Shown piece by piece: positions 6,961 through 61,843 of a DNA stretch of 64,000 nucleotides; positions within the stretch are counted from its first letter, which is position 1, and every line of letters begins with the position of its first letter. The position numbers and the translations under genes were made by a program. The notes under the pieces are model-generated. The model did no database searches. It worked only from the letters and a program-made list of their open reading frames with translations, and was not told the origin of the DNA. Source of the DNA: an uncultured bacterium. Lineage in GTDB: Bacteria > Patescibacteriota > Minisyncoccia > Phycocordibacterales > DATDWN01. The stretch is from NCBI GenBank assembly GCA_963727715.1, contig CAVSGX010000004.1, positions 8,455-72,454 of the forward strand, written 5' to 3'.

Positions 6961-7599
6961 TTAAATGAGATTCCATTCTAAAATTAGACTGGTTTTTCTG
7001 CTGGACTCGGCTACCAAGTCTATTGAATCTACGGTGAACTTCTCCACACTAAGCATAAAAGATATTTTATCTATTATTTGGCCCATAGAGTTTTTCTTGT
7101 CCGGCAGAAAACCCAGAGTGATGTGGGGTTTGAAATCGGTTACATACGGATTGCCGTATTTTTTCAAACTTTCCACCTGCTTTTGATTAAGCTGAGAAAT
7201 TCTTTTTTCATAATCTGGATCAAGACGATCCCCTTTAAAAGGCTCTACGGCAGCCAAAATTTTCTTCTGCAACCTGTCCAAATCAGGATTGTTTTTTATT
7301 TCCACATATAAAAGCCCAAAAGAGAAAGATTTCATTTCGGAAATCTGACATTCAATTTTTGGCTGGCTAACTAAAATTTCGTCTAGAGCGATTTTGATTT
7401 TCTCCACATTGCCGGTCGGCACCGAAAGATCATAGAAATTAAGATGGGGTTTCAGATGGTCGGAGTAAGCCATGCCGGCCGACAGTTCACGAACTAGATA
7501 GTTGTTTATTTTCTTCAAATCAAAAAACAAAGCTGAATTTTCTTTAATCACAGCCGACACGCCAAGCCATTTGTAATTCGGGTCTATTTCATTTTTCAT
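6961..7599 (-). CDS. 2H-phosphoesterase / 2'-5' RNA ligase-like protein (tentative)
   Basis: Two H-x-[T/N]-x motifs (KPHLNFY and KPHITLGF) spaced as in LigT-like proteins. The first motif is degenerate. Confidence 0.4.
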   Translation of the reverse strand: MKNEIDPNYKWLGVSAVIKENSALFFDLKKINNYLVRELSAGMAYSDHLKPHLNFYDLSVPTGNVEKIKIALDEILVSQPKIECQISEMKSFSFGLLYVEIKNNPDLDRLQKKILAAVEPFKGDRLDPDYEKRISQLNQKQVESLKKYGNPYVTDFKPHITLGFLPDKKNSMGQIIDKISFMLSVEKFTVDSIDLVAESSRKTSLILEWNLI

Positions 7600-52672: not shown

Positions 52673-53281
52673 TTAGAGCAACTGGCAAATTTTTGGGGTT
52701 CTTTGTTTTTGCGTCATTCGGTACGCATCGACAATAAAACCCAAAGAAATTATTTGTTGAACGAAAAGCCATGGGTAGTTTTCTATATACATCAGCCACC
52801 CACAAGCAACGTGCATAAGAACATACCAGAGATATCCGCCAGACCGCTCTTTGGCAAGCATGTATGTGCCTATAAGAAAACCTGACACAAGCCCAACCTC
52901 CAGCCATTGATTAACAGTTTTGAGCCCACCGAAATCATATAGACTGTAAGTGAACCCAAGTGCAATGCAAATGACAGCAAGGTGATCAAGCCAACGTGGT
53001 GGTTTTTTAGTTATGCCACGAATAGCAATCACTAAACCCAGCACCATTGCTGGAGCTCCACTTGTTTCTACTGAAGCGGCGATCCAGTTTCGCTCCTTCA
53101 CAAAAATAATCACCCATGGAGGTAAACCAATAAGATACACTGCCCATGAGGCGATTTTCCAATTCCGCTTTTTCCCTATATCACCCCGATTGTGGGCATG
53201 TTCCGAAAATGAGAAAAAAATCTTATTGAGAAGATAAAATATCCCCCCAAGGTACTGTAACAGCAAAACACCCCTAGCCAC
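52673..53281 (-). CDS. Integral membrane protein, hypothetical; the 5' end abuts the IS30 element
   Basis: 202 aa, about 6 TM segments. The assigned GTG start (53279-53281) sits exactly at the IS left end. Confidence 0.45.
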
Positions 53282-54296
53282 CTTTGAAGTAGGACAGTTA
53301 GAATTAATGCATTAGTCGAAAATTAATTTTAATTGTCATATGAAAAACAAATATCATCATTTGTCTTTTGAAGAGAGGTTTTGTATTGAAAAGATGTATT
53401 GCGCCGGTTCGGCCATTCGCAAAATTGCCGAATTTCTCGGTCGGAGTGTCAACACTGTGAGCAGAGAAATACAAAAACACAGTGTTAATGGGGTGTATGA
53501 AGCGGAAAAAGCCAAGCAGAAAGTTTCAATGAAAAGATGGCGAGCCAAACAGCAGTGTCTGAAAGTGGCGCTTGACCCGTTTCTCTGTCGATTCGTGGTG
53601 GAACGATTAACCAAGCCGTATCATTGGTCGCCGAAGCAGATTAGCGGGTATCTTGAATGTGAAATGGGTATCATCTGCTCGGCCAAAGCCATATACAAAT
53701 TTGCCGAGTCGAGAGGTCTAAACCACCTGCTTTTTTGGGGTTGGAACAATCACAAGGGTGGGAGAAAACGAAATCATTGGAAGCACATTCAGGATGGCAG
53801 GAAGTATATTGATGTCAGACCGGAGAGAAAAGGTCTAGGACACATTGAGCTCGATTTCATCGTTTCCAAAGACAGTTCGTGGGTACTTTTGGTTGCTGTG
53901 GATTGGCAAGCCAAAAGAACATGGGTCAGGAAACTGCCCAACAGAAAACGCGACACTATTCGTGCCGCGCTTTCCCGTCTGTTCCATGGTGTTGAATTGA
54001 AGAGCATCACCACAGACAACGATATTGCATTCACCTGTTGGAAAGAGTTGGAAACTCTCCTGCAAGTGCCAATCTATTTTACACATCCATACCATTCTTG
54101 GGAAAAAGGTCTGGTGGAAAACACCAACAGATGGATCAGATGTTTTGTGCCTAAACGAAGAGATATTGAGTCAGTCACTGAGGAAGAATTGCAAGAAATA
54201 CATTCCTTCCTAAACAACCGACCGAGAGAAGTGATTGGCTTCCGCGCGCCAATGAGTTATTATTCAAACATTAGTTCTGTCCTACTTGAGGGGTAA
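53281..54296 (+). mobile_element. IS30-family insertion sequence
   Basis: Transposase ORF plus imperfect terminal inverted repeats. Left: ..gaagtaggacagttagaattaatg (53286 onward). Right reverse complement: ..caagtaggacagaactaatg (ending about 54293). Confidence 0.75.
53340..54296 (+). CDS. IS30-family transposase
   Basis: 318 aa. N-terminal HTH (HLSFEERFCIEKMYCAGSAIRKIAEFLGRSVNTVSREI) and a DDE core (..ELDFIV..TTDNDIAF..PYHSWEKGLVENTN). Confidence 0.9.
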   Translation: MKNKYHHLSFEERFCIEKMYCAGSAIRKIAEFLGRSVNTVSREIQKHSVNGVYEAEKAKQKVSMKRWRAKQQCLKVALDPFLCRFVVERLTKPYHWSPKQISGYLECEMGIICSAKAIYKFAESRGLNHLLFWGWNNHKGGRKRNHWKHIQDGRKYIDVRPERKGLGHIELDFIVSKDSSWVLLVAVDWQAKRTWVRKLPNRKRDTIRAALSRLFHGVELKSITTDNDIAFTCWKELETLLQVPIYFTHPYHSWEKGLVENTNRWIRCFVPKRRDIESVTEEELQEIHSFLNNRPREVIGFRAPMSYYSNISSVLLEG

Positions 54297-54470: not shown

Positions 54471-54498
54471 AAAAAAGGTCAGAGGGGACAAGCCCTCT
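54471..54498 (-). terminator. Intrinsic terminator after the small membrane-protein gene
   Basis: agaggg/ccctct stem (54481-54498), then a T-run on the minus strand. Confidence 0.55.
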
Positions 54499-54721
54499 AA
54501 CCCCGAGAATAAGGATGATTTTCCTTTTTCAAAATCTTGTATTCTAAAAAACCATAACCAAAAAGCAAAATGAGACAAACAATGAAAAAGATAAGCGACC
54601 GAAGTGGCTCCTTGGGATCGATGGGTTCCAATTTGTTTGGGAATCCTATACAAACCACAACACAAATCGCCACCGCTAGTAAAATCGGTATTCTGATTTT
54701 TTTTAGTGTACTAAGACTCAT
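54497..54721 (-). CDS. Small two-TM membrane protein between 16S and tRNA-Ile
   Basis: 74 aa from the ATG at 54721, preceded by GGAGG (54729-54733). MSLSTLKKIRIPILLAVAICVVVCIGF..LIFFIVCLILLFGYGF. Confidence 0.5.
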   Translation of the reverse strand: MSLSTLKKIRIPILLAVAICVVVCIGFPNKLEPIDPKEPLRSLIFFIVCLILLFGYGFLEYKILKKENHPYSRG

Positions 54722-54864: not shown

Positions 54865-54867
54865 TTG

Positions 54868-54887
54868 TCCTTTATTTTGTTCCGTTC
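54868..54887 (-). promoter_or_regulatory. 3' strand of the 16S precursor processing stem
   Basis: tcctttattttgttccgttc is the perfect reverse complement of 58617-58636. Confidence 0.7.
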
Positions 54888-55380
54888 ACCCGAGTCTTTC
54901 CTCGGTGTCAAACTGTTTTAGGACGCACAGTCATCGTCCATTGTCTGCTCAATTGAGGCAGGCAATATCGACTCAATCGTTCGACACATTCTAGGAACGC
55001 GCCGGACTTCTCGATCAGAGACCGAGAGTTTTTCAAATTGAATTATTCCACGACCAGCTTCCGCTAGCCGTGCCTTGTTACGACTTAGTCTTTGTCATTG
55101 AGCTTACCTTGGTGCCGCAAAAACGACGCTTCGGGTATTCCCAACTCCCCTGACTTGACGGGCGGATTTCGATAACTTTCGTTTCAGGTTCCCTGAAGTT
55201 TTTAACTTCACCATATCGCTTCCCGTTATTCACGACTTTGGACGTAGCGAGCGGATTTCCCGCACTACGCGAGTTCGATAGTTTCTAGAACTAACGATTT
55301 TGTCCTTCATTTTGTTTTTCAACAAAACTACTACGACGCAGCTGACTTCCAGCACTAATTTTTGGAGTCAAGATTTTCAC

Positions 55381-55407
55381 TTGACAAACACATTTTTTTC
55401 TTATTAT
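55381..55407 (+). promoter_or_regulatory. Promoter-like signal in E1
   Basis: TTGACA (55381-55386) within the hairpin gtcaag..cttgac, followed by TATTAT 15 nt downstream. Confidence 0.35.
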
Positions 55408-55426
55408 TTCATAGGAGGTACTTCGT

Positions 55427-55534
55427 ATGCACATATTTGAGGTTTTTGTATGTGTTGTTTTGGCAATCATGTTTCTTCCTTTGCCAATTTTCTTTTTGCG
55501 TTTTATTGCTTGTATAATAACTGATGCTGATTAA
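55427..55534 (+). CDS. 35-aa hydrophobic peptide (type-I-toxin-like), candidate
   Basis: AGGAGG (55413-55418), 8 nt, then ATG. MHIFEVFVCVVLAIMFLPLPIFFLRFIACIITDAD, TAA stop. Too short for the ORF track. Confidence 0.4.
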   Translation: MHIFEVFVCVVLAIMFLPLPIFFLRFIACIITDAD

Positions 55535-55558
55535 ATCTAATCAGTTATTAGTCGACTT

Positions 55559-55590
55559 GAGTGATTTTGTCAAATCACTCTTTTCTTTTT
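55559..55590 (+). terminator. Intrinsic terminator of the E1 cassette
   Basis: gagtgattt-tgtc-aaatcactc (9-bp stem), then ttttcttttt. Confidence 0.55.
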
Positions 55591-56087
55591 CCAAAAATTA
55601 GTGCTGGATCTCCCAGGGTCATTTATATTTCTGTTCCAAACATCCGAATCGAGATTTTCGATAAGATTTATCGTGTGCTTCCTTCTGACTCACCGCAGAA
55701 GTCGCACATCTCTTTTTTTTGATTCGGCTGCTCTTTGCTACTAGGATCCTTCAGTCCAGTCATTGCTGATTGTGGACCTACCCGTTCGCTATTTTCACAC
55801 TCCTGTGAAAAGTTGGATTTGAACCAACTAGATATATAAACTGCCTGGCGCATTTTATTCTGAGTACAAGACTTGAGAACGTATTCACCGCGGTATGTCT
55901 GACCCGCGATTACTAGCAATTCCAACTTCATGGGGTCGAGTTTCAGCCCCCAATCTGAACTGGGGCGACTTTTCTAAGGATTGGCTCAGGGTTACCCCGT
56001 CGCAACCTGTTGTAGTCGCCATTGTATTATGTGTGTAGCCCAAGGTATCAAAGGGACATGCTGATCTGGCGTCATCCTCGCCTTCCT

Positions 56088-56197
56088 CCCAGCTCCAGTT
56101 GCGCAAGATGAACGAACTCGGTTAAGACCGAATACGGACATCGATGTTTGCACAGAGAGACATCTACTTATGATGTTCTTGTGCAACTGGAGCTGGG
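56088..56197 (-). other. Expanded helix-40 hairpin of 16S (about 110 nt)
   Basis: cccagctccagttgcgcaaga (56088-56108) pairs with tcttgtgcaactggagctggg (56177-56197). This replaces the short CCAGU-GAUA-AACUGG helix of E. coli. Confidence 0.65.
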
Positions 56198-56425
56198 CAG
56201 TCTCGCCTGATACTTATAACAGACAACGAGGGTTGCGTTCGTTACCCCACTTAAGGGAACAATTCAAATCACGAACTGACGACGACCATGCATCACCTGC
56301 CTAACTGTCCTTGTGGGACCGCAAACGTTTCTGCTTGCATTCAGTTAGGTTTCAAACCTTGGTAAGATTCTTCGTTTATCATCGAATTAAACCACATAAT
56401 CCACTGCTTGTGCAAGTCCCCGTCT

Positions 56426-56457
<32 letters not shown>

Positions 56458-56641
56458 ACCCAGGCGCTTGACTTAACGCGTTAGCTACGCCACGCAGAGG
56501 GTCGATACTCCGCATAGCTAGTCAAGATCGTTTAGGGCGTGGACTACTGGGGTCTTAATGTTACTTCAAAATTTTGGGAAATTTTGAGGCACAACATTTC
56601 TGTTGTACTCTGCATGTTGCCATGCAGTTCGGACTATATCT

Positions 56642-57403
56642 TTATCTGTATGTATTCCACTTAGCTTTTTTCTTTTCATATTCTGCTATTATGACAGATT
56701 CTGAAAAATTACTAAGAGAAACCATTTCAGATATCCAGCGTTCTTGAAATTGAGAGTTTTTATATAGAAGAATTGCTTTGGATAACATGCTCGATACTGG
56801 TATGTATGGCAGTATGATACGCAAGAATTTTTTTAATTCTTCTTGTGACCTAATCCATAACCGCCAGTATTGTTCTTGCTTCCCATCTTGCTTACGCCCG
56901 ACGGGGGCAACAATGGCACGAACATCCCAAACAACTTTAAGATAGCGAGCTAGCATTTCGACTGATTGTTTTGAAAAACCATCAGTACAAAACACACCTT
57001 TTCTGGCGCCGTAACCAATAAGCGAACCGTCATCACACCACCAAACGGCGAGTGATAACGCTGTCATTTGATTAAGCCACCTACGCTCTATAAGCAATTT
57101 ATTTTGTTTGTGAGTTAAATGATGAAGTTCTGTAAGAGATGAAGTTCGCCTACTGGCAAATCTCCATTTTTTGTTCTTACTGTATCCATCAGGTTCCTGC
57201 ACAAACACACTGCTATCTCCTGCTATCTCTTTGAGAGCTTGCGCTTTCCATAAGAGATAATCTTTCTGCATTTCCGAATGACGAATTTGTAAATTCGCAT
57301 TGAAATAATTTTTTTGGATTTTTAGCGAGCCGTCTCCAAGGATTGAACCGAAGATAATAGCTTTCGCTTCATCCGACAAAGGCACATATTTCGTATCATG
57401 CAT
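56642..57403 (-). CDS. LAGLIDADG homing endonuclease (double-motif)
   Basis: 253 aa. IIFGSILGDGSL and LAVWWCDDGSL motifs. Confidence 0.85.
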   Translation of the reverse strand: MHDTKYVPLSDEAKAIIFGSILGDGSLKIQKNYFNANLQIRHSEMQKDYLLWKAQALKEIAGDSSVFVQEPDGYSKNKKWRFASRRTSSLTELHHLTHKQNKLLIERRWLNQMTALSLAVWWCDDGSLIGYGARKGVFCTDGFSKQSVEMLARYLKVVWDVRAIVAPVGRKQDGKQEQYWRLWIRSQEELKKFLRIILPYIPVSSMLSKAILLYKNSQFQERWISEMVSLSNFSESVIIAEYEKKKAKWNTYR

Positions 57404-57509
57404 ATAATTTTAAGTTAATTGCACGACGACAGAATAGCACCAACTATCTTACTCAATTTCATAGTCTCTACGGGGTTTCTAGCACTAATTTTTGGAGTCA
57501 AGCTTTGAC

Positions 57510-57538
57510 TTGACAAGATTCATTTTATGATTTAACAT
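57510..57538 (+). promoter_or_regulatory. Promoter-like signal in E2
   Basis: TTGACA (57510-57515), 17 nt, TAACAT (57533-57538). The -35 box overlaps the hairpin gtcaag..cttgac. Confidence 0.4.
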
Positions 57539-57559
57539 CAATTCCAGGAGATTAACTCG

Positions 57560-57679
57560 ATGGAATTTATTATGATATTGATCTGTTTAGGAGTTTTTTG
57601 TTTGATCACAGATATGATGATAACTGTTGCTATTGATATCTGTGAATGGATCGATCATTACCTGCACCGGCTTTTATAG
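57560..57679 (+). CDS. 39-aa hydrophobic peptide (type-I-toxin-like), candidate
   Basis: AGGAG (57546-57550), 9 nt, then ATG. MEFIMILICLGVFCLITDMMITVAIDICEWIDHYLHRLL, TAG stop. Confidence 0.4.
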   Translation: MEFIMILICLGVFCLITDMMITVAIDICEWIDHYLHRLL

Positions 57680-57697
57680 CGGTGCAGTTTTCTTTTT
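57662..57697 (+). terminator. Intrinsic terminator of the E2 cassette
   Basis: ctgcaccg..cggtgcag stem overlapping the stop codon, then ttttcttttt. Confidence 0.55.
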
Positions 57698-58616
57698 CCA
57701 AAAATTAGTGCTAGAAACTTCCCTCGGGGTTGTCCATACGAAATCAGTAAATTTCATATTGTATGGAGTTTCCCCGATATAGCTAGATTACAATTCTATG
57801 TCACCATAGAAAAGAGACACCTTCGTCCTATATTTTATTAGCGGGACTGGATTATCTAATCCCATTCGCTACCCACGCTTTCGTGTTTCAGTGTCAGGAG
57901 TGGCCCAATGTGCTGCCTTCGCTTTCGGTGTTCCCCATGATATCAACGGATTTCACCCCTACTCCATGAGTTCCACACATCCCTGCCATCCTCTAGTCGT
58001 GCCGTTTCGCTCGCACTTCCGGGGTTAAGCCCCGGGTTTTAACAAGCGACTAACACAACCACCTACACACCCTTTACGCCCAATAATTCCGGATAACGCT
58101 CGGGGCACTCGTATTACCGCTGCTGCTGGCACGAGTTTAGCAACCCCTTATTCTTGAGGTACTATCAATAAACTTTCTCCCTCACAAAAGATGTTTACGA
58201 CCCAGAGGGTCTTCATCCATCACGCGGCGTCGCTCGATCAGGCTTTCGCCCATTGTCGAATATTCTCGGCTGCTGCCACCCGTAGGTGTATGGACCGTCT
58301 CTCAGTTCCATCGGTGGGGGCCAAGCTCTCACTCCCCCTACGCGTCATAGCCTTGGTAGGCCGTTACCCTACCAACTAGCTGATACGACGCAGACTTTTC
58401 CTTTAGCGATAAATCTTTCCTCCGAAGAGAATATCAAGTATTACCTAATCTTTCGACTAGCTATTCCTGACTAAAGGGTAAATCTCTGCGCATTATTACC
58501 TCGTTCGCCACTGTCCTTGCGGACCGTTTGACTTGCATGCCTTATCCACGCCGCCAGCGTTCATCCTGAGCTAGGATCAAACTCTTAATAAAGATTTATT
58601 AAGATCTATCTTTTAA

Positions 58617-58636
58617 GAACGGAACAAAATAAAGGA
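58617..58636 (-). promoter_or_regulatory. 5' strand of the 16S precursor processing stem
   Basis: gaacggaacaaaataaagga is complementary to 54868-54887. Confidence 0.7.
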
Positions 58637-58831
58637 AAATACTTTTGGTATCGCGATTATTTTATTTTTCTTTGATGAACACTGATTGTGTTTTTGGTTG
58701 ATTGTTATTGATGTTGTGAATTTTGCTGAATTCACTTTCCGGAATTATTTTAAAAGAATATTTTGCATCCGACTGTTTTTGACAAAACAGCCGAACTGTA
58801 AAACTTGCACGTTTTACATTCTCTAAATAAA

Positions 58832-61673: not shown

Positions 61674-61843
61674 ACAAATCCGACTGGCATAATAAATTTT
61701 TGGAGATGTAAACTTTTCCAGCGAAAAGTTTACTCGGTCCTCGGCTCGGATTTGTCAAGAGCCTTCGCTTTGCTCAGGTCATTGACAAAACCAGCTCCTC
61801 GCCTGCGTATGCTCCAAAAATTTATTATGCCAGTCGGATTTGT
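61674..61843. repeat. TIR-bounded intergenic element (family B, copy E3)
   Basis: Perfect 32-bp terminal inverted repeats: acaaatccgactggcataataaatttttggag (61674-61705) and its reverse complement (61812-61843). The core has the hairpin gtaaactttt..aaaagtttac and the motif ccttcgctttgctc. Confidence 0.6.

Follow-up and report, generated by a model that had tools for sequence, protein, structure and literature searches.

The 244-base element E2, nested in a group I intron of a 16S rRNA gene, is probably, judging from its sequence and those of its relatives, a copy of a family of small, non-autonomous, and self-insulated transcription units that carry exchangeable cargo and occur only in structured-RNA genes of CPR bacteria. 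Each cassette has two standard ends: a left end, in which an arm is followed by a short hairpin and a -35 box, and a right end, made up of a T-run and the other arm. The payload between these ends is exchangeable and brings its own -10 box, leader, cargo, and terminator stem. [quoted passage not shown]

Anatomy of the E2 cassette

The features of E2 are given below by their positions in the window, i.e., the whole stretch of 64,000 nucleotides that was analysed.

57475..57718, + strand: E2 cassette, arm to arm; 244 bases with a perfect 22-bp inverted repeat; the same ends in 21 further copies (genomes and metagenomes)
57475..57496, strand (.): E2 left arm GTTTCTAGCACTAATTTTTGGA; in the rRNA-sense RNA, the 3' strand of the 22-bp helix that extends P6
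57497..57514, + strand: conserved hairpin GTCAAG-loop-CTTGAC; stems 57497-57502 and 57509-57514; overlaps the -35 box
57510..57538, + strand: sigma-70-like promoter TTGACA-17-TAACAT; -35 box 57510-57515, 17-nt spacer, -10 box 57533-57538
57517..57687, + strand: exchangeable payload, variable between copies; covers the -10 box, leader, ORF, and terminator stem; unalignable with L023 and L004
57546..57550, + strand: AGGAG, Shine-Dalgarno-like; ATG 9 nt downstream at 57560
57560..57679, + strand: ORF of 39 codons, MEFIMILICLGVFCLITDMMITVAIDICEWIDHYLHRLL; predicted single membrane helix with a polar C-terminal tail
57662..57697, + strand: intrinsic terminator; 8-bp GC-rich stem, then TTTTCTTTTT at 57688-57697; -14.8 kcal/mol
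57697..57718, strand (.): E2 right arm; inverted-repeat match to the left arm

The arms are separated by 200 nt and form a perfect inverted repeat, as an earlier note on this DNA had stated, although the repeat measures 22 bp (57475-57496 and 57697-57718) rather than the 20 bp given there. The remaining signals that the note had read in E2 were all found at their places, namely, the pairing of GTCAAG with CTTGAC, the TTGACA-17-TAACAT promoter, the AGGAG with an ATG 9 nt further on, the hydrophobic 39-amino-acid ORF, and a terminator that overlaps the stop codon. The promoter matches the consensus at 10 of 12 positions and shares the top score in the 2.8-kb region scanned; its -35 box lies within the conserved arm, and its -10 box lies within the variable payload. 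The Kyte-Doolittle mean of the peptide over 17 residues peaks at 2.55. In the terminator stem, CTGCACCG (57662-57669) pairs with CGGTGCAG (57680-57687), with the TAG stop codon inside the 10-nt loop, and the T-run that follows is part of the conserved right arm; our hairpin scan has a loop limit of 8 nt and thus leaves this terminator unlisted. A weak minus-strand promoter-like site, TTCACA-18-TATCAT, is also located inside E2.

Neither chance nor misassembly accounts for E2. Within the 64 kb, the 17-mer core of the arms has only four matches at up to 3 mismatches, all of which are arms of E2 and of a sister cassette, E1, whereas 0.57 matches are expected by chance. The rRNA-sense strand of the E2 region folds at -88.5 kcal/mol (z = -10.7 versus shuffled sequences), and a contig assembled independently from the read set is 100% identical across E2.

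The host gene and the P6 loop

E2 and E1 are located in one 16S rRNA gene, the elements of which are as follows.

55050..58592, - strand: 16S rRNA gene hosting E1 and E2; three exons and two introns; Rfam RF00177, 672 and 491 bits; 3' end approximate
56554..57852, - strand: group I intron hosting E2, 1299 nt, at about E. coli 16S position 790; borders from the intron-less 16S allele in L009
56642..57403, - strand: LAGLIDADG_2 homing endonuclease gene (PF03161); sense-oriented and separate from E2
55348..55608, + strand: E1, sister cassette in the same 16S gene; in the second intron (55166-55860), at 16S position ~1400; borders from L003, which is without that intron

The 3' exon was identified by visual inspection and by alignment with other loci. 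Rfam Intron_gpI gives partial matches at 57777-57680 (P4-P6) and 56758-56610 (P7-P9), which place E2 in L6, the loop of P6, and the homing endonuclease gene in L8, the loop of P8. In P6, GGG at 57723-57721 is paired with CCC at 57474-57472, and the arms of E2 continue this helix. The cmscan alignment folds the right arm locally as P6a and misses its true partner 200 nt away, and this fold was rejected as an artefact. No known RNA family was found by Rfam over E2 or over the RNA payloads of the family, with only sub-threshold noise (GcvB, Hrs1, and snoRNA). The endonuclease has 673 homologues, and those with named hosts belong to Parcubacteria lineages. An origin from a chloroplast or a giant sulfur bacterium was rejected, because the set of genes is typical of a bacterial chromosome and because the 16S tail, the secD-secF-16S gene order of the neighbourhood, and the relatives of the LAGLIDADG protein indicate Parcubacteria.

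The empty-site comparison proposed in the earlier note was carried out. In homologous LAGLIDADG introns without a cassette (records of Doudnabacteria, Campbellbacteria, and Wolfebacteria, and L047), the P6 loop holds only a hairpin of 18-47 nt between GGGAAG and CCCCGTAG; the LAGLIDADG proteins of these empty-loop introns are 70-77% identical (L028/29, L034/35, L036/37, and L047). Other homologous introns (L030-33 and L046) carry unrelated inserts at the same spot, which in L030-33 belong to a different cassette family that is sense-oriented and lacks a terminator. Homologous introns thus exist without the insert, and the same arms are found outside this intron, as the note had argued against an intron-specific structure; E2 shows neither the conserved presence nor the confinement of an intrinsic P6 extension.

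Distribution of the cassette family

Exact 20-mer matches were sought over 185,579 species genomes and 241 million metagenome records, giving 26 loci: 14 with cassettes, all in rRNA genes, 1 element nested in a tRNA gene, and 11 with a single arm. Seven further cassette copies were reached through close relatives of the LAGLIDADG protein. The family comprises 22 copies with ends of the E2 type, 21 of them complete and 1 truncated by the end of its locus, with 15 payload types and a size of about 235-320 bp, in CPR (Parcubacteria-type) bacteria; the requirement for a perfect 20-mer biases this sample toward recent or well-kept copies. Every one of the 22 copies lies within an rRNA gene, in antisense to the host rRNA; the copies occupy four sites, and their orientation may represent only four independent events, one per site. 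The genomes in the scans have one locus each, always in an rRNA gene, and the 64-kb window has two, both in the 16S gene.

Arms of the E2 type also bound inserts at 16S position ~1400, where they are found in a second and a third type of intron, and in a 23S helix; in L002 and L019, the cassettes sit directly in the domain I helix of the 23S rRNA, in the region between GGGGAAACCC and GGGAAGUAAAACAU. The E1 site is occupied by different payloads in L006, L014, and L027. The tRNA-nested element (L016) has the same arms and is located in the anticodon loop with CAAG on either side. The single-arm loci (L005, L007, L008, L010, L011, L012, L015, L017, L018, L020, L022, and L026) were set aside as chance matches, mostly in coding DNA, such as membrane segments reading ...PALIFG...; one is in the hairpin of a cobalamin riboswitch. 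No cassette turned up in two scans of viral contigs, which gave only one chance match in a coding region. A full-text literature search with the arm sequence and descriptive terms found no prior description of the cassettes. The family thus appears to be previously undescribed and, in the collections scanned, confined to RNA genes of CPR bacteria.

Conserved ends

The arms are perfect inverted repeats of 19-22 bp in all complete copies. Across copies, paired positions vary together (C/T with G/A, as in TCTAG/CTAGA versus TCCAG/CTGGA), and each of the three arm mismatches found is a G-U pair when read in the rRNA-sense RNA and an A-C mismatch in the opposite strand. The short hairpin is conserved in 15 of 15 payload types, with stems compensated or replaced in some (L014, L024, and L042). 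E1 and E2 share their ends, as the earlier note had observed, with 93% identity over 30 nt on the left and 96% over 28 nt on the right. In L021, identity is 93% in the arms but only 69% in the surrounding intron. Constant ends around a divergent payload, recurring at other intron types and in a 23S helix, bear out the proposal of a mobile cassette family made in that note.

Payload exchange and coding signals

Comparison of related loci demonstrates, at the level of sequence, that payloads are swapped within a site and shared across sites. Between the window and L023, the two flanks are 95.6% and 98.2% identical, whereas the payload is unalignable, and the same is true of L004; the swaps have their breakpoints at the -35 box and at the T-run. 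Introns whose endonucleases share at least 90% identity carry four or more payloads among them. In an all-against-all comparison, the payload types are mutually unrelated except for those of L019 (23S helix) and L021 (P6 loop of a 16S intron), which carry one structured-RNA payload with 84% identity and compensatory changes. Where one payload was recovered more than once, its copies have the same sequence.

The payloads are enriched in gene signals. A -10 box at 16-18 nt was found in 10 of 15 payloads (2.2 expected; 0 of 5,000 shuffles as high), and a distinct hairpin of -8.6 to -19.4 kcal/mol abuts the same T-run in all 15 types. An ORF of 30 or more codons beginning with ATG is present in ten of the 14 payloads tested, compared with 2.6 expected (0 of 2,000 shuffles), and nine of the 14 encode a membrane-helix-like peptide, compared with 0.07 expected and with no shuffle as high; the reverse strand of the payloads gives one ORF and no membrane-helix-like segment. 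Across the family, the statistics of ORF length, hydrophobic segment, -10 box, and terminator favour the reading of E2 as a mini-gene that was put forward in the earlier note. Three of the payloads are ORF-less structured RNAs, and the ORF of L003 has no stop codon ahead of the terminator.

The peptides themselves are orphans. A phmmer search of 1.84 billion representatives with the E2 peptide returned only the peptide itself, and word-indexed searches with two other payload peptides gave self-matches or none. None of the payload peptides scanned matched Pfam or PADLOC, all-against-all BLASTP gave self-matches only, and none of the ten payload peptides scanned, that of E2 included, has the 23S_rRNA_IVP domain.

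The translation signals present a paradox. AGGAG or GGAGG is found at the matching place in 8 of 12 coding payloads, and three payloads have no clear ribosome-binding motif. The host 16S rRNA ends in ...GUGGAAUAAUUCAAUUUGAAA, without CCUCC, as does that of every cassette host for which the 16S tail is in hand, and among 53 host ORFs only 3 have a Shine-Dalgarno-like motif, a frequency equal to background. Because the host tail lacks CCUCC, the AGGAG of E2 is unable to act in the textbook manner. If the proposal set out below is true, the cassettes would sharpen the question of the role of a Shine-Dalgarno-like motif in lineages whose ribosomes have no matching tail.

Comparison with known systems

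Integron cassettes generally lack a promoter, terminate in attC sites, and depend on an integrase and an attI platform, and many carry small orphan ORFs. The E2 family resembles them in having modular, exchangeable cargo between standard recombination ends but differs in that its members have their own promoter and terminator, halves of which reside in the ends, and occur as single copies in RNA genes. A scan of 30 ORFs of the window showed no IntI-type tyrosine integrase, and its one rve-domain match was weak and was located in an IS30-like transposase.

Excision by RNase III with no rejoining of the ends, which leaves the rRNA in fragments, is characteristic of rRNA intervening sequences. 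As described in PMC4990558 and PMC11270868, the intervening sequences of rRNA genes are optional and patchy inserts whose ends pair into a long helix in the precursor; some bear ORFs, and they are thought to spread horizontally. The cassettes resemble the intervening sequences of Coxiella and Leptospira (S23p/23S_rRNA_IVP type) as optional inserts with pairing ends, and those of L002 and L019 lie directly in a 23S helix. E2, on the other hand, is nested in an intron loop rather than an rRNA helix, although its ends do form a 22-bp stem; the cassettes have standard ends across sites, their own promoter and terminator, a constant antisense orientation, and exchangeable cargo. Group I introns in the nuclear rDNA of protists and fungi carry antisense homing endonuclease genes, with spliceosomal introns, in a peripheral loop (PMC9548176). 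These are likewise protein genes opposite the rRNA strand in a peripheral group I loop, whereas E2 reads as a bacterial mini-gene, complete from promoter to terminator, that has no relation to endonucleases.

Alternative explanations

If the insert were an expansion of the P6 arm with a role in RNA only (in 23S, an ordinary intervening sequence) and its gene signals were accidental, the extension of P6 by the arms, the fold of the rRNA-sense strand (z = -10.7), the three arm mismatches that are G-U in that strand, and the three ORF-less structured-RNA payloads would all be expected, and the orphan nature of the peptides and the absence of an anti-Shine-Dalgarno tail in the host would fit as well. 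We consider this explanation quite unlikely: a hairpin of 18-47 nt suffices in homologous introns, the 15 payloads have a correctly spaced -10 box more often than by chance and a hairpin at the T-run, and the ATG ORFs (10 of 14) and membrane-helix-like peptides (9 of 14) are found on the cassette strand only, at levels that shuffled sequences never match. In addition, an RNA stem is symmetric, and the strict antisense orientation is thus left unaccounted for. An ordinary MITE, i.e., a deletion derivative of a transposon moved in trans, with the cargo as a passenger and the rRNA genes as the sites where copies survive, is unlikely. The Correia elements of Neisseria are small non-autonomous MITEs with terminal inverted repeats, which can carry promoter elements and, when co-transcribed, form hairpins that are sensitive to RNase III; such MITEs have hundreds of dispersed intergenic copies, target-site duplications, and uniform interiors. 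The cassettes share the small size, the terminal inverted repeats, the absence of an enzyme of their own, and the presence at several sites, and the CAAG flanks of L016 could be a 4-bp target duplication. They are found only in RNA genes, however, with no copy elsewhere in the genome or metagenome collection; no target-site duplication was found at any of the four rRNA sites (A-D), and the interior differs in almost every copy. No longer element with the same ends appeared in the genome, metagenome, or viral scans, which cover exact 20-mers, and the conserved ends are asymmetric and functional, with half a promoter on one side and half a terminator on the other, around payloads that are replaced as units and enriched in coding signals. 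An IS30-like transposase gene (53340-54296), 1 kb from the rRNA gene, would suit a MITE, but its inverted repeats bear no relation to those of the cassettes, and it was rejected as the mobiliser; no enzyme for movement of the cassettes and no transposase partner was identified.

It is more doubtful still that the cassettes are domesticated small genes, i.e., membrane proteins or RNAs that benefit the host, are parked in rRNA introns, and are kept by host selection. The expression signals are strong and consistent, as such genes would have, and regulatory roles are common among small membrane proteins. The spacer between the 16S gene and trnI also holds a free-standing ORF for a small two-helix protein with a promoter, GGAGG, and a terminator, which would be in keeping with domestication. 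Presence is patchy among near-identical introns, however, the cargo is replaced by unrelated sequence, and no payload family is conserved, a combination that fits dispensable, fast-turnover elements better than host functions.

Proposed mechanism

For a self-insulated transcription unit with exchangeable cargo, we propose the following course of events. In the pre-rRNA, the arms would pair into a helix of 19-22 bp that seals off the insert, so that E2 would merely lengthen P6. Because the cassette is always antisense, its terminator reads in the rRNA direction as an A-run and a hairpin, and rRNA synthesis would not be stopped. On the opposite strand, the terminator would end the transcript of the cassette before it enters the 16S exon in antisense. 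The helix, the antisense orientation, and the terminator together would make the insert harmless to the host gene. The cassette promoter is predicted to give an RNA of ~150 nt and, in the case of E2, a 39-amino-acid membrane peptide with a single helix. The cassettes probably spread by hitch-hiking on intron homing and by recombination through the conserved rRNA flanks, and their cargo probably changes by recombination in the conserved arms of ~40 bp and ~30 bp.

The products of type I toxin loci (Fst, Ldr, Ibs/Sib, TisB, and Hok) are membrane peptides of one helix with a polar or charged tail, opposed by an antisense transcript, and such loci are often repeated in a genome. The predicted payload peptides are similar in form, with 34-59 amino acids, one helix, a polar or charged tail, a strong predicted promoter, and a compact predicted mRNA; the E2 peptide, with 39 amino acids and a hydrophobic mean of 2.55, is below the size criterion of ~60 amino acids. 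By geometry, the rRNA precursor with its intron is fully complementary to the cassette transcript. On the other hand, the cassettes have no dedicated antitoxin gene and no sequence relation to known toxin families (Pfam and PADLOC), and some payloads are RNAs. From its size and hydrophobicity, we tentatively suggest that the E2 peptide might act like a type I toxin, a reading to which we give somewhat less than even weight. Heavy convergent transcription of the rRNA would then supply both a fully complementary antisense RNA and promoter occlusion, and the peptide would be made only when rRNA synthesis drops.

A broader and equally tentative possibility is that the cassettes represent an unrecognised class of modular mobile elements for the loops of structured RNAs (rRNA helices, loops of group I and group-II-like introns, and the tRNA anticodon loop). 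The ends of such elements would have three roles at once: clamping the RNA so that the insert is hidden from the host RNA, supplying one half of a promoter and one half of a terminator, and acting as arms for recombination; orphan membrane peptides and small RNAs would be shuffled across sites and distant CPR lineages, and rRNA transcription would act as an antisense brake.

Implications

At least some of the uncharacterised inserts in CPR rRNA genes would then be organised, exchangeable expression cassettes nested in introns and helices. Inserts of this kind alter the lengths of 16S and 23S rRNA genes and may mislead amplicon and annotation pipelines. If the proposal is true, even the most conserved genes known would bear a further level of nested mobile DNA, and the cassettes would form a pool of orphan membrane peptides and small RNAs, with fast turnover, in organisms whose genomes are tiny; they would also offer a natural design for placing an independent gene inside an RNA gene without harm.

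Structure of E2 and its host introns

The window is a gene-dense segment of a bacterial chromosome (gatB, obg, secA, secDF, pyruvate kinase, and glycosyltransferases), and both cassettes reside in its minus-strand 16S rRNA gene. The borders of the two introns of this gene were set by alignment to intron-free 16S genes. Intron A is a group I intron, with P4-P6 and P7-P9 aligned by Rfam at 57777-57680 and 56758-56610, respectively. All of the elements that the earlier note had claimed for E2 are present in its sequence, and the inverted repeat is perfect as claimed but measures 22 bp, not 20 bp.

Features of the 16S rRNA gene introns and of E2
57852-56554 (-): intron A, contains E2
57403-56642 (-): LAGLIDADG_2 gene of intron A, occupies L8
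55860-55166 (-): intron B, contains E1
55348-55608 (+): E1, the sister cassette, at approximately 16S position 1400
57475-57718 (+): E2
57475-57496 / 57697-57718: perfect 22-bp inverted repeat of E2, arms 200 nt apart
57497-57514 (+): hairpin GTCAAG/CTTGAC, inside the inverted repeat
57510-57538 (+): promoter-like TTGACA-17-TAACAT, 10/12 consensus positions matched
57546-57550 (+): AGGAG, with an ATG 9 nt downstream
57560-57679 (+): ORF of 39 codons
End of the ORF (+): terminator-like 8-bp GC-rich stem with the stop codon within its loop, then TTTTCTTTTT continuing into the right arm

In P6 of the rRNA-sense intron A RNA, GGG (57723-57721) is paired with CCC (57474-57472), and the 22-bp repeat prolongs this helix beyond an AA bulge; thus, E2 forms the terminal loop of P6 and has its gene in the antisense orientation relative to the rRNA. 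The predicted fold of the rRNA-sense strand of the E2 region has an energy of -88.5 kcal/mol (z = -10.7 against shuffles). An independent assembly of a public read set contains a contig that agrees with the window at every position of a 1446-nt stretch that includes E2. With up to 3 mismatches allowed, the 17-mer core of the arms has no match in the 64 kb other than the two arms of E1 and the two of E2. E1 shares the arms, hairpin, and TTGACA of E2, followed by AGGAGG, a 35-aa hydrophobic ORF (55427-55534), and a terminator. Group-II-like insertions at approximately 16S position 1400 are reported in a published survey (PMC11270868), and the Rfam group II match in the window is sub-threshold only.

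The left arm is palindromic and, at 57488-57516 (-), doubles as an outward rRNA-sense promoter-like TTGTCA-17-AAAAAT that points toward the LAGLIDADG gene, which starts approximately 85 nt downstream; E1 has the same site. Exon 2 of the 16S gene contains a hairpin insertion of approximately 96 nt (56095-56190; 21-nt arms, 56088-56108 / 56177-56197) that L003, L014, and L025 lack in their 16S genes. A 23-nt pair (58617-58639 / 54865-54887, 96% complementary) brackets the whole 16S gene, as expected of a leader-trailer processing stem.

Optional insertion and payload exchange

In homologous introns of four other lineages, the stretch from GGGAAG to CCCCGUAG contains just a hairpin of 18-47 nt, and the same arms occur at four sites with unrelated payloads, which bears out the earlier proposal of a mobile cassette family with conserved ends and divergent payload. 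In the comparison of the window with the locus L023, the flanks are 95.6% and 98.2% identical, homology breaks off at the TTGACA end and restarts at the T-run, and no similarity was detected across 57517-57687. At least four unrelated payloads occur among introns with endonuclease identities of 90% or more: those of E2, L004, the L023 type (five contigs), and the L042 type (three contigs). The E1 site carries three other payloads (L006, L014, and L027).

Only one pair of the 15 payload types is related, namely, the structured RNAs of L019 (23S) and L021 (16S intron), which lie at two different sites and are 84% identical with compensatory changes. The arms are still 93% identical where the identity of the surrounding intron is only 69%. 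The structured-RNA payloads (L019 13286-13534, L021 920-1166, and L002 331-586) are approximately 130-140 nt, are not ORFs, have very stable predicted folds of -71 to -76 kcal/mol, and gave no Rfam match.

Two other inverted-repeat families, TTTTGTGAATTTCAT... and GTTTGTAAGTTTYAAATAGGA..., were observed in the same P6 loop of related introns (L030-L033, approximately 2650-2950; L046, 681-924). Both have a GGAGG-like motif within or beside the arm and no terminator; the ORFs are in the sense orientation (a 60-aa two-helix and a 62-aa basic product in L030-L033; 30 aa in L046, identified by eye only). The interval from secD to a sugar transferase gene in the window contains a perfect 32-bp inverted repeat (61674-61843). 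The inner end (AAATTTTTGGAG) of this repeat is similar to the cassette arm, and the 106 nt between its arms include a TTGTCAAG...TTGACAA palindrome but lack an ORF; this repeat may be a distant cassette relative without cargo.

Distribution of the family

Exact matches to TCYAGCACTAATTTTTGGAR were sought in a single genome for each of 185,579 species and in 241 million metagenome records. The 26 loci comprised 13 with complete cassettes, L013 (a cassette truncated by the locus end), L016, and 11 single matches, which were rejected as due to chance; most of these fall within protein-coding sequence, and one falls within a riboswitch hairpin. Seven further copies came from contigs encoding close relatives of the intron A endonuclease. 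The family totals 22 copies, including E1 and E2, and the flanks define four insertion sites:

Site A: P6 loop of the intron A type
Site B: intron B
Site C: another, group-II-like intron at the same 16S position as site B (RF01998, 47-48 bits)
Site D: 23S domain I, directly within the rRNA

In all 22 copies, the orientation is antisense to the host rRNA, and no copy was found outside RNA genes in the genome and metagenome scans. In L016 (1404-1515; metagenome contig Ga0182027_10066841), the same arms (TCCAGCACTAATTTTTG / CAAAAATTAGTGCTGGA) surround a complete tRNA-Gly(CCC), and this element, which has neither promoter nor terminator, interrupts another tRNA-Gly(CCC) in its anticodon loop, where CAAG is present on each side. 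Two tRNA-like matches were observed at 1767-1978 of L002, in the region covered by a 23S rRNA gene; the same gene has a cassette and two group I introns. An IS30-like transposase gene adjoining tRNA-Ile (53340-54296 (+); HTH_38 and a weak rve match) was rejected as a partner; its own inverted repeats (53280-53297 / 54277-54294) are unrelated to the cassette arms.

Signals and predicted products of the payloads

A -10 box 16-18 nt from TTGACA occurs in 10/15 payloads (2.2 expected from shuffles; 0/5,000 shuffles reach this count), and a distinct stable hairpin adjoins the conserved T-run in 15/15. On the cassette strand, 10/14 payloads have an ATG ORF of at least 30 codons (2.6 expected; 0/2,000 shuffles) and 9/14 a hydrophobic helix-like segment (0.07 expected), compared with one and zero, respectively, on the opposite strand. 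These sequence signals suggest that the payloads are transcription units, mostly for predicted membrane peptides. In each predicted peptide (34-59 aa), an N-terminal helix is accompanied by a tail that is polar or charged; the peptides showed no kinship in an all-versus-all comparison and no Pfam or PADLOC family match, and the E2 peptide matched only itself among 1.84 billion representatives.

AGGAG or GGAGG lies 6-10 nt upstream of the ATG in 8 of the 12 coding payloads. The host 16S 3' end (...GUGGAAUAAUUCAAUUUGAAA; 55050-55100) has no CCUCC anti-Shine-Dalgarno motif, and the same holds for every cassette host whose tail sequence is available; according to a published survey, the motif is missing in approximately half of Parcubacteria (PMC9297842). 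Shine-Dalgarno-like motifs precede 3/53 host ORFs in the window, which is the background rate. The cassette motifs, set against the CCUCC-free tail, do not fit the picture proposed below. A strong motif, an ATG start, and a hydrophobic product occur together in only three ORFs of the whole window: those of E1, E2, and a free 74-aa two-helix ORF (54497-54721 (-)). The latter lies in the 16S-trnI spacer in the rRNA sense, not within cassette arms, with promoter-like TTGACT/TGATATAGT, GGAGG 7 nt upstream of the ATG, and a terminator.

Relation to known elements and proposed function

The nearest known elements are rRNA intervening sequences (IVS), some of which bear ORFs; MITEs (small non-autonomous elements with terminal inverted repeats) that carry signals of their own; type I toxin loci present in repeated copies; antisense endonuclease genes of eukaryotic rDNA introns; and integron cassettes. 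Each shares some features with the cassettes but appears to differ from them in defining ones. Full-text literature searches, the arm sequence included, found no prior description, and the terms inverted repeat, promoter, antisense, palindrome, and small ORF are absent from the survey of rRNA insertions in CPR (Parcubacteria-type ultra-small bacteria; PMC11270868). Judged by sequence, the cassettes are probably akin to known IVS-like or MITE-like nested elements; that they merit a class of their own is a tentative proposition that we consider less likely than not.

The architecture, optional insertion, cargo exchange, strict orientation, and restriction to RNA genes are established. We propose that the arms clamp the insert within the precursor RNA, which would allow the ribozyme or rRNA helix to fold normally. 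Only the antisense orientation would be tolerated, since a terminator that acts on rRNA synthesis would be lethal, a reading supported by the sense-oriented family in the same loop (L030-L033), which has no terminator; the terminator would also keep the cassette transcript from entering the exon antisense. Cassettes may spread by intron homing and by recombination via conserved rRNA flanks, and cargo could be exchanged via the conserved arms, such as those that E1 and E2 provide in one genome. At the weakest step, a putative type-I-toxin-like peptide would be held back by the abundant complementary rRNA precursor and convergent transcription. The window also encodes a LigT-like 2',5' RNA ligase / 2H phosphoesterase (6961-7599 (-)), which may be of interest given the many rRNA inserts in this genome.
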